Positions 1 to 1,295 are shown, numbered from the stretch's first letter. The stretch is 1,295 nucleotides of DNA from Escherichia coli (GCF_003334385.1 NZ_QOWN01000117.1), one strand, 5' to 3'. The notes: generated by a model from the sequence alone, not told the origin. Numbers and translations: made by a program.

Positions 1-271
1 GTTCAAAGAGGCATACATCAATGCCTTTAACCAGATGGAGAAACAGCTTTCAAATCCCTCTGTACTGAGCGACGTTGCACATAACGCCAGCGTTCTCTAT
101 TCCTACATTTCATCAATTCATCAGGTCTGGCTGCAGCAGCTTTATCCCATGTTGGCAAAAGCCGAATCCCCGCTGGCTGTAAGTCTGTATGACCGCATCA
201 ACGACGCGGCGCTACTGGCCAGTCTCATAAATTTGTCGCTGAACCCTTCAGAGGTAAGGGGGCGCAAATGA
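1..271 (+). CDS. Hypothetical protein, 5'-truncated at the window edge (about 90 C-terminal residues visible)
   Basis: Frame 2 is open from position 2 to the TGA at 269-271. The first in-window ATG (35-37) has no Shine-Dalgarno motif upstream, so the true start is probably upstream of the window. The stop overlaps the next gene's start (ATGA). No family recognised by eye. Confidence 0.6.
   Translation, partial: FKEAYINAFNQMEKQLSNPSVLSDVAHNASVLYSYISSIHQVWLQQLYPMLAKAESPLAVSLYDRINDAALLASLINLSLNPSEVRGRK
256..262 (+). promoter_or_regulatory. Shine-Dalgarno-like ribosome-binding site for the CDS starting at 268
   Basis: AAGGGGG, 5-nt spacer, then ATG; embedded in the 3' end of the upstream gene. 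Confidence 0.6.
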
Positions 272-492
272 TCCGGAATATTTTCAAACGGTTTACCAAT
301 CAGACTTTCCGTTGTCCTCGTCCTGGTCAGTGGTACACCACGCCTGCAGGGCATGTTCTACGTGTCAGCCTGGTTGACCGTGAATGTCAGAAGGTGATTT
401 GTGAACCGCTGGGCCGTAATTACCGCATCAGTATGCCGCTTATAGCCTTTTGCTCCGGAAAAATGTTTAAGCGTCTGGGAGGTGTGGCGTGA
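268..492 (+). CDS. Hypothetical small basic protein (74 aa) with four cysteines; possible nucleic-acid-binding or metal-binding protein
   Basis: ATG at 268-270 lies 5 nt downstream of AAGGGGG (256-262). The ORF runs to TGA at 490-492. By my count it has 13 Arg/Lys against 3 Asp/Glu, with Cys at residues 16, 40, 45 and 62 and His at 29. It overlaps both neighbours by 4 nt. Confidence 0.7.
   Translation: MIRNIFKRFTNQTFRCPRPGQWYTTPAGHVLRVSLVDRECQKVICEPLGRNYRISMPLIAFCSGKMFKRLGGVA
477..482 (+). promoter_or_regulatory. Shine-Dalgarno-like ribosome-binding site for the CDS starting at 489 (GTG)
   Basis: GGGAGG, 6-nt spacer, then GTG; embedded in the 3' end of the upstream gene. Confidence 0.6.
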
Positions 493-788
493 ACTGTTTT
501 CAGTTTGTGTGCGGATGTGCTTTCGATAACCCGATTCAGCGCCTGATTATGTTGCGTGTTTTGATGTCGGGTTCTTCAGACGGTGAAGGCGAGAGAGTTA
601 TTGATCATCAGGTGCTTGCTGATTTCTGCTGTTGTTCTAAGCAAGCGATATTCAGGGAAACCCTGGCACTGGAAAGAGCTGGTTATCTTCATATCCGAAA
701 AATTGCAACGCTTACTATTGATGCAAAAGCCAGACTACAACCTGCGCGTGGCTACACAATTCTCATGCCGCGGAAGGAGGTTGTATGA
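489..788 (+). CDS. Hypothetical 99-aa protein with a helix-turn-helix-like segment and two cysteine clusters; putative small DNA-binding regulator
   Basis: GTG at 489-491 lies 6 nt downstream of GGGAGG (477-482). The ORF ends at TGA 786-788. The internal ATGs at 549 and 564 have no Shine-Dalgarno motif, so the GTG is preferred. Residues about 40-69 (HQVLADFCCCSKQAIFRETLALERAGYLHI) fit a helix-turn-helix pattern. Cys clusters are C-G-C (nt 510-518) and C-C-C (nt 627-635). Confidence 0.65.
   Translation: MNCFQFVCGCAFDNPIQRLIMLRVLMSGSSDGEGERVIDHQVLADFCCCSKQAIFRETLALERAGYLHIRKIATLTIDAKARLQPARGYTILMPRKEVV
774..780 (+). promoter_or_regulatory. Shine-Dalgarno-like ribosome-binding site for the CDS starting at 785
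   Basis: AAGGAGG, 4-nt spacer, then ATG; embedded in the 3' end of the upstream gene. Confidence 0.65.
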
Positions 789-1295
789 GCCGTTACGCCC
801 CCACACCGGAAGTTATGGCTATTGGTCAAATTAATATTTCCGGCAATGTTACACCTGCGAACTGGTGGAAATATATTCGACTACCCAGTGGGCGTCCGGA
901 TGCGACGGCTATCGCTCTGCTTTCAGAGATCGTTTACTGGTACCGCCCGACAGAGGTCAGGGATGAGCACACCGGAGCGTTGCTGGGATATCGCAAGCGT
1001 TTTCAGGGCGACAAACTGCAAAGAAGCTACCAGGCGTTTGCTGAGCAGTTTGGTTTCGGGAAAAGGGAAACCGCAGATGCGCTGAAGCGTCTGCGCGATG
1101 CAGGGTTTATTACTCTGGATTTACGCACGGTGGAAATGCTCGATGGGGTGAAATGCAGCAATATTTTGTTTGTCGGGATCAACCCACAGGCAATTGCGGC
1201 CATCACCACACCTTCTTCTGTTTCGCCAGAAAGTAACAGCAATAATGCAATCAGCGATACAGCTATTACGTTAAAACGGAACACCCCCCGACGTC
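785..1295 (+). CDS. Putative winged-helix DNA-binding protein, possibly a phage/plasmid replication-initiator-like N-terminal domain; 3'-truncated at the window edge
   Basis: ATG at 785-787 lies 4 nt downstream of AAGGAGG (774-780). Frame 2 is open to the end of the window, about 170 codons with no stop. The segment FGKRETADALKRLRDAGFITLDLRTVEMLDGVKCSNILFVG looks like a recognition helix followed by a beta wing. It is followed by a Ser/Asn/Thr-rich low-complexity stretch (TTPSSVSPESNSNNAISDTAIT) typical of an interdomain linker. The functional assignment is by pattern resemblance only. Confidence 0.7.
   Translation, partial: MSRYAPTPEVMAIGQINISGNVTPANWWKYIRLPSGRPDATAIALLSEIVYWYRPTEVRDEHTGALLGYRKRFQGDKLQRSYQAFAEQFGFGKRETADALKRLRDAGFITLDLRTVEMLDGVKCSNILFVGINPQAIAAITTPSSVSPESNSNNAISDTAITLKRNTPRR

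Follow-up and report, generated by a model that had tools for sequence, protein, structure and literature searches.

A free-standing winged-helix protein of replication initiator type, with a conserved cysteine triplet, is encoded at the head of a lambdoid prophage replication module

We analyzed a 1,295-nucleotide stretch of Escherichia coli DNA (here called the window), which is the early-right region of a lambdoid prophage and is matched over its whole length by complete E. coli genomes at 99.4 to 99.8% identity. The order of genes in two annotated examples of this prophage runs from a cI-like repressor through a Cro/YdaS-like protein, YmfL (CP76/CII-like), a Rha regulator, a 74-aa hypothetical protein, and a 99-aa hypothetical protein to a "replication protein" of 327 or 363 aa, followed by a PerC-like protein, Dam methylase, a LexA-domain protein, and RusA, with Q further on. 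Window positions 1 to 271 hold the C-terminal part of the Rha-family regulator (PHROG 821), the end of its gene being at 35 to 271, and this left end is 92 to 95% identical to mEp460, cdtI, and several Stx phages. The Stx phages matched there are of the type named Eru6 (PMC8951638). The features discussed below are as follows.

268-492, plus strand: 74-aa ORF (PHROG 1153, unknown function), upstream of the 99-aa gene.
478-482 and 489-491, plus strand: Shine-Dalgarno sequence GGAGG and GTG start of the 99-aa gene, read from the sequence, with a 6-nt spacer.
489-788, plus strand: gene for the 99-aa triple-cysteine winged-helix protein (ORF call; RefSeq WP_000995577.1, "hypothetical protein").
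510-518, plus strand: codons tgc gga tgt for C8-G-C10, allele specific.
531-566, plus strand: predicted helix 1 (residues 15-26; AlphaFold2), with a conserved P-x-Q-R-L-I-M motif in which R18, L19, I20, and M21 are conserved.
606-677, plus strand: predicted helix-turn-helix (HTH), consisting of helix 2 (40-47), a turn, and the recognition helix (51-63), from AlphaFold2 and an hhalign alignment to the mEp460 initiator domain.
627-635, plus strand: codons tgc tgt tgt for C47-C48-C49, the family hallmark motif F-C-C-C-S/T, at HTH positions 8-9-10.
687-761, plus strand: predicted beta-hairpin wing (strands 67-71 and 87-91; AlphaFold2), with a long low-confidence loop and a conserved R-G-Y-T-I strand motif.
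785-1295, plus strand: replication initiator gene, 5' portion (full product 327 or 363 aa; PHROG 270, E 8.5e-76; RefSeq "replication protein").

An earlier note on this DNA had described a GTG-initiated ORF of 99 codons at 489 to 788, and RefSeq calls the same ORF. The replication cassette begins with this cistron. Its GTG overlaps the TGA stop (490 to 492) of the 74-aa ORF as GTGA, while its own TGA (786 to 788) overlaps the initiator ATG at 785 as ATGA; the initiator also has a Shine-Dalgarno sequence of its own, AGGAGG, at 775 to 780. The possibility, raised at the time, that homologues begin at a downstream methionine was not borne out, as they start at the same place or 4 to 6 codons further upstream. 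The gene is intact and full length in 196 of 5,426 complete E. coli genomes, and the ratio dN/dS among four E. coli alleles is 0.04 to 0.10, at dS values of up to 0.79. This ORF is a real gene under selection. An 83-aa ORF that overlaps it in the +1 frame (window 583 to 834) is not a gene; the only database entries that contain it are frameshifted versions of the 99-aa protein (P0007 and P0011), of which it forms the tail. Scans of the window with Rfam and for promoters and terminators gave nothing above chance. The 74-aa ORF, which contains four cysteines and is coupled to the 99-aa gene through the GTGA overlap, had no match in Pfam, NCBIfam, or PADLOC.

Homologue sets were built with word-indexed and exhaustive hidden Markov model searches across billions of proteins. 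The resulting family is small: its clusters at 90% identity numbered 45 at first and 59 in the end, with 25 representatives at 50%, and its members are almost all 97 to 106 aa long. Hosts are Escherichia, Salmonella, Klebsiella, Enterobacter, Citrobacter, Kluyvera, Serratia, Pantoea, and Yersinia, together with metagenomes, and one E. coli copy lies on a 393-kb plasmid record. Artifacts or rearrangements account for a few odd entries, among them the two frameshifted proteins mentioned above and a chimera (P0001). When the 99-aa protein and its Salmonella homologue were compared by tblastn with 50,697 phage records, no family member was found, and the only matches were to initiator N termini, at E values of 0.1 to 1. 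The family is thus seen in prophages and in none of the sequenced phage isolates among those records; it is a small Enterobacterales prophage family of ~100-aa proteins.

AlphaFold2, run with the family alignment, predicted a winged HTH (pLDDT 78, pTM 0.73) with helices at residues 15 to 26, 40 to 47, and 51 to 63 and strands at 36 to 38, 67 to 71, and 87 to 91, which is the winged-helix order H1-b1-H2-turn-H3-b2-wing-b3. The helices at 40 to 47 and 51 to 63 coincide with the HTH that had been proposed from sequence at nucleotides ~606 to 695, and the Foldseek matches of the model are all winged-HTH proteins. Phage replication proteins were at the top of the comparison with viral models (E 6e-5 to 1e-3, TM 0.65 to 0.74), including the "replication protein O" of Min27, HTH-domain initiators, a "replisome organizer," and the N-terminal domain of lambda GpO. 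Matches in the PDB were weak (E about 1e-2) and comprised the N-terminal domains of RepA_N initiators (4pql, 4pt7, and 5kbj) among general winged-HTH regulators of the MarR, Lrs14, CodY, and NolR types, with 6j0e, the entry for comparison with ArsR/SmtB, a weak match at rank 44. A model of a tandem dimer, in which two copies were joined by a linker, reached a pTM of 0.71 and may be taken as a weak hint of dimerization; a Foldseek search with this model returned no informative two-domain match.

Profile comparisons placed the protein near the same initiators. Residues 1 to 98 matched PHROG 4617 ("replication initiation protein") with an E value of 2e-29, at profile positions 3 to 93 of 223, so that the match is confined to the first ~40% of the profile, and distant homologues also match this PHROG. 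By hhalign, the protein aligned to the HTH_36-type N-terminal domain of the mEp460 initiator with 80% probability and an E value of 1.5e-5, pairing NPIQRLIML...GEGER...LADFCCCSKQAI with NPLRKLVLI...GEC...IADQCEISKRSV. A Pfam scan gave nothing significant, the sole match being a weak one to HTH_Crp_2 (E 0.012). The threshold of HTH_36 (PF13730) was not reached by the 99-aa protein, and its homologue P0030 has a weak precomputed match to this family. By sequence, the protein is related to HTH_36 without being a member at the family's own cutoff. NCBIfam gave a single subthreshold match (15 bits against a cutoff of 65), the PADLOC profiles of antiphage defense had no match, and a profile search of PDB sequences returned nothing meaningful. 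The 99-aa protein is a free-standing relative of the initiator origin-binding domain, without everything that lies beyond the wing. BLASTP and hhalign comparisons with the adjacent initiator (in L001) and with the Salmonella initiator were not significant, which indicates that it is not a recent duplicate of its neighbor's N-terminal domain.

Both cysteine clusters pointed out in the earlier note, tgc tgt tgt at 627 to 635 and the C-x-C pair at 510 to 518, are present, and the protein has a sixth cysteine, C3 (495 to 497), which that note did not list. On the question of whether the cysteines are conserved, the two clusters part ways. In the alignment of the 59 cluster representatives, C48 and C49 are cysteine in 58 clusters each and C47 is cysteine in 56, and all three columns are among the ten most conserved; the departures are Y-C-C (two clusters), L-C-V (one), and C-E-C (one). 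The triplet is also kept in a second subfamily, which differs in its recognition helix and wing and has an identity of only 24 to 40% to the query. Its codons vary across loci (TGC TGT TGT, TGC TGT TGC, TGC TGC TGT, and TGC TGC TGC), and such synonymous variation indicates that selection acts on the amino acids. We considered a translational sensor based on the cysteine codons and rejected it as unlikely; the whole fold is conserved at the protein level. The N-terminal pair is not conserved: C3, C8, and C10 are limited to E. coli alleles, the commonest of which has C-G-S in place of C-G-C, and other genera have no cysteine there. Being allele specific, this pair cannot belong to a conserved metal site, and since the triplet provides the sole cysteines in 17 of the 59 clusters, there is no conserved fourth ligand.

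The triplet had been described as lying inside the first helix of the HTH. It is within the HTH, but in the AlphaFold2 model it begins at the end of that helix and the rest of it is in the turn. A canonical HTH has hydrophobic residues at positions 4, 8, 10, 15, and 19, alanine at position 5, and glycine at position 9. Read from its sequence, the 99-aa protein has this pattern in the register L43(4), A44(5), C47(8), C48(9), C49(10), S50(11), I54(15), T/I58(19), L61(22), and G65(26), which agrees with the hhalign alignment to the HTH_36 initiator domain. In this register the three cysteines replace the usual hydrophobic-Gly-hydrophobic trio, which is F-G-F in the adjacent initiator and C-E-I in the mEp460 initiator; L-C-V and C-E-C occur in the outliers of the family itself. 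A purely structural null explanation would see the triplet as small residues that pack the two HTH helices. This would fit positions 8 and 10 well and position 9 less well, because glycine or serine is a single nucleotide change away from the cysteine codon and yet is almost never seen; the near-absence of these residues at position 9 hints at selection for the thiol itself.

The earlier note had also proposed a link between the 99-aa gene and a replication gene downstream, and this link holds across genera. Neighborhoods were read at 14 loci, including six of E. coli (L001, L002, and L013 to L016), two of Serratia, and one each of Salmonella and Pantoea; further loci read were that of Klebsiella aerogenes (L012), L011, and the metagenome and read-assembly contigs L007 to L009. 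The 99-aa gene directly precedes a replication initiator in every locus (14 of 14), the stop/start overlap between the two genes is ATGA in 13 of them, and genes for a DnaC-like ATPase (loader) and a DnaB-like helicase often follow the initiator. There is also one natural fusion, P0065 (214 aa), which joins the triple-cysteine domain to an initiator N-terminal domain, the initiator part being 33% identical to the N-terminal domain of the L011 initiator (E 9e-7). By the Rosetta-stone argument, this fusion suggests that the triple-cysteine domain and the initiator work together. A read-assembly contig (L007, 4571 to 5971) contains three initiator-type DNA-binding ORFs in a row, namely, a stand-alone N-terminal domain of the window's initiator type (135 aa), a triple-cysteine fusion (214 aa), and an HTH_36-type protein, which suggests frequent shuffling of these domains. 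At the Serratia odorifera loci L003 and L004 (6297 to 8584), an insertion sequence (Transposase_mut) splits the downstream initiator, and the 99-aa gene is intact.

The window's initiator consists of an O-like winged-HTH N-terminal domain, a linker that contains repeats, and a DnaD-like C-terminal domain. All initiators with a readable 3' end have such a C-terminal domain (PF09524 in L011 and L012; PHROGs 270, 26426, and 1701 in others). Their N-terminal domains are of at least four unrelated types, each with its own iteron-like linker repeats spaced 23 bp apart. The recognition helix of the 99-aa protein (S-K/R-Q-A-M-F-K-E-I-K) is nearly constant across three of these initiator types, and with iterons and initiator types varying around a constant helix, the 99-aa protein is not the determinant of iteron specificity. 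Initiators have iteron specificity matched to their own gene, which the 99-aa protein lacks, and no repeats were found in the 99-aa gene itself. A helicase- or loader-recruiting C-terminal domain is likewise absent, as the protein ends right after the wing and such a domain is encoded only by the gene that follows. Four diverged loci with nearly the same recognition helix were compared by k-mers for an operator or motif shared near the gene, and none was found. The initiator gene contains two kinds of repeat (window 1258 to 1295; L001 9258 to 9356; L002 5297 to 5499). One is a 12-nt tandem repeat (TACAGAGATTAC) that codes for T-E-I-T, of which the 327-aa allele has 2 copies and the 363-aa allele about 11. 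The other, just upstream, is a pair of 16-nt repeats spaced 23 nt apart, ACGTTAAAACGGAACA at 1268 to 1283 and a second copy from 1291 that runs past the end of the window. By analogy with lambda O, the repeats look like an origin inside the initiator gene. The TACAGAGATTAC repeats were also considered as the binding site of the 99-aa protein and rejected, as they are missing from L005 and L007, which carry the gene.

Comparison with sequenced phages of the SfV, mEp460, cdtI, and Stx types showed how this module is bounded. These phages have the same left flank up to window 484, a block which includes the 74-aa ORF and is outside the replication cassette, and they have the C-terminal third of the initiator in common at 97% identity. 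Between these shared flanks, they have only an HTH_36-type initiator front and no triple-cysteine gene. The shared flanks with a different middle indicate that the exchangeable unit is the 99-aa gene plus the initiator N-terminal domain and the repeats, and the phages that have the same initiator C-terminal domain without the gene indicate that the gene is dispensable for that class of initiator. The mosaic joint lies exactly at the start of the 99-aa gene (window 484 to 489; position 3989 in phage mEp460, L010; 2081 to 2160 in L013), the same Shine-Dalgarno sequence and overlap serve the initiator in SfV/mEp460-type phages, and the 74-aa ORF is kept upstream of the replication genes in both cassette types. 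In the chimeric entry noted above (P0001), from a metagenome scaffold, the first 24 codons of an mEp460-type initiator are fused in frame to codon 3 of the triple-cysteine gene.

Among known systems, the 99-aa protein is most similar to the N-terminal domains of phage initiators (lambda O-like; HTH_36, PF13730; PHROGs 4617, 391, and 270). It has the same predicted fold and order of secondary structure, and its gene likewise heads the replication module. Sequence landmarks in common are a helix 1 of the form N-P-x-x-R/K-L-hydrophobic, a G-E-x loop that precedes strand 1, L-A-D-x-C-x-x-S-K within the HTH, and G-hydrophobic-hydrophobic following the recognition helix. It differs from phage initiators in having no iteron linker and no DnaD-like or P-binding C-terminal domain, in being encoded in addition to a complete initiator, and in having C-C-C where initiators have L-G-V, F-G-F, or C-E-I. 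The RepA_N plasmid initiators (RepA of pSK41 and pTZ2162), whose N-terminal domains are dimeric winged HTHs that bind iterons, provided the best matches per domain among solved structures (the three entries given above; root mean square deviation 2.8 to 4 Å over ~86 residues). Identity to them is only 15 to 20%, at E values of about 1e-2, and unlike the 99-aa protein, the RepA_N domains belong to a two-domain initiator and have no cysteine triplet.

Two other kinds of protein resemble it in particular respects. Members of the ArsR/SmtB family are also small, dimeric winged-HTH proteins whose first HTH helix contains a cluster of cysteines, and R773 ArsR reportedly leaves its DNA when As(III) is bound via C32-V-C34 and C37 in that helix. 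In contrast to these proteins, the 99-aa protein has no sequence match to the family (Pfam HTH_5 and HTH_20, NCBIfam, or PDB sequences); the ArsR cysteines, when aligned to the canonical HTH, are at the start of the helix (positions of about 0, 2, and 5, in sequences of the E-L-C-V-C-D-L type) rather than at 8, 9, and 10, and ArsR genes belong to resistance operons, not phage replication modules. Lambda CII and P22 C1 are, like the 99-aa protein, small (~95-aa) HTH proteins encoded between cro and the replication genes, and in the Salmonella locus (L005) the 99-aa-type gene is directly after cro, exactly in the CII slot. There is no match to CII in sequence or at the level of the fold, and CII is not a winged helix. 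We rejected a CII analogue as unlikely, given the different fold and the prophage's own CII-like CP76/YmfL gene.

Taken together, we lean toward the view that the 99-aa protein binds DNA as an accessory factor or regulator in the initiation of phage replication. It is a free-standing winged-HTH domain of the initiator origin-binding type (of the lambda O-like, HTH_36, and RepA_N kinds), translated in tandem and presumably stoichiometrically with the initiator. We infer that it is a DNA-binding protein, probably homodimeric, which cooperates with the initiator or tunes it at or near the origin; in the absence of a helicase-recruiting C-terminal domain, it would be an accessory or regulator and not itself an initiator. 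The triplet, at positions 8 (core), 9 (turn), and 10 (core), would hold the two HTH helices together, and oxidation or soft-metal binding at this site would be expected to deform the HTH and release DNA. Counting against an accessory role are the lack of a shared DNA motif, the variation of initiator N-terminal domains and iterons around a protein that stays similar, the dispensability of the gene in related phages, and the lack of a homologue in phage records. A further proposal, which adds to an accessory role and is compatible with it, is that the triplet is a working sensor. The HTH would be distorted either by oxidation, to a vicinal or intersubunit disulfide or through S-thiolation, or by a soft metal or metalloid bound at C47 and C49, as a C-x-C pair, and C48; DNA binding would be switched in this way, and phage replication coupled to the host's redox or metal state. 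We regard this as possible but less likely than not. Such a sensor would account for the conservation of the triplet between two subfamilies only ~30% identical, for the cysteine in 58 of 59 clusters at position 9, which is normally an exposed glycine and from which glycine or serine is one nucleotide away, and for the synonymous codon changes that point to selection on the amino acid, and As(III) sensing by ArsR is a precedent. On the other hand, positions 8 and 10 belong to the core, where small hydrophobic residues are expected anyway, and the related sequences L-C-V, C-E-C, and C-E-I have the pattern expected of structural positions. No fourth ligand is conserved, as 17 clusters have only these three cysteines, a regular helix does not allow three adjacent residues all to chelate the same ion, and Pfam, NCBIfam, and PDB sequence searches gave no match to any metalloregulator family. 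That a thiol switch on a replication accessory makes the firing of the prophage origin answer to oxidative stress, sulfur stress, or soft metals seems to us rather unlikely.

The protein could instead be an ordinary transcription factor, for example, one that autoregulates the early-right or replication operon and does not act directly in the firing of the origin. Several NCBI records give it that name, stand-alone winged-HTH proteins of ~100 aa are typically repressors or activators, the PDB matches by Foldseek include regulators of the MarR, Lrs14, CodY, and NolR types alongside the weak HTH_Crp_2 match in Pfam, and its position after cro in Salmonella is where lambda has cII. We nevertheless consider this unlikely: its closest relatives in both sequence and structure are initiator N-terminal domains and not regulators, the gene travels with the initiator whatever its upstream neighbor, the window's prophage already has a CII-like protein, and neither a promoter-like site above chance nor a shared operator was found. 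Because the protein is homologous to the N-terminal domain of HTH_36-type initiators but ends after the wing, and because it occurs in prophages and in no sequenced phage isolate, one could also imagine a truncated-initiator decoy that damps the prophage's own initiation or blocks superinfecting relatives with HTH_36-type initiators. The tight translational coupling to the resident initiator suggests cooperation instead, the recognition helix tracks no iteron type, and there was no match to a PADLOC defense system, all of which make a decoy improbable. It is more improbable still, to the point where we give it hardly any weight, that the gene is a nonfunctional remnant, left when recombination exchanged the front of an initiator gene. 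The region is highly mosaic, with the joint at window ~484 to 489, a chimeric variant (P0001) exists, and stand-alone ORFs for initiator N-terminal domains are found in L007; set against this, the gene has the low dN/dS values given above, none of the 196 E. coli genomes with the gene has a disrupted copy, and its length and start/stop overlaps are kept across genera, down to 24% identity. The dN/dS of 0.04 to 0.10 rules out a decaying remnant.

The fold, the type of domain, and the genomic module are of known kinds. Searches of the literature by accession, for HTH proteins with consecutive or vicinal cysteines, and for HTH_36 turned up no account of the protein, and two aspects of it were not described in the literature found: a separately encoded, strongly conserved domain of initiator type and an invariant C-C-C at HTH positions 8 to 10. 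The replication modules of lambdoid and Shiga toxin-type prophages are far more varied than the lambda O/P model, and a role has yet to be assigned to most of their small genes. The 99-aa protein, which is small and carried by about 4% of sequenced E. coli, demonstrates that a DNA-binding domain of initiator type can be a protein in its own right, strongly selected and made together with a complete initiator, an arrangement that points either to an origin complex of two proteins or to a regulator that is built in. A chemically active triplet would tie the replication of the prophage to host redox or metal state; this would be a mode of sensing not described for the control of phage replication and a cysteine arrangement not described for any HTH sensor. 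Such a link would matter in the gut, where replication drives copy number and hence the dosage of toxin genes in Stx-type phages.
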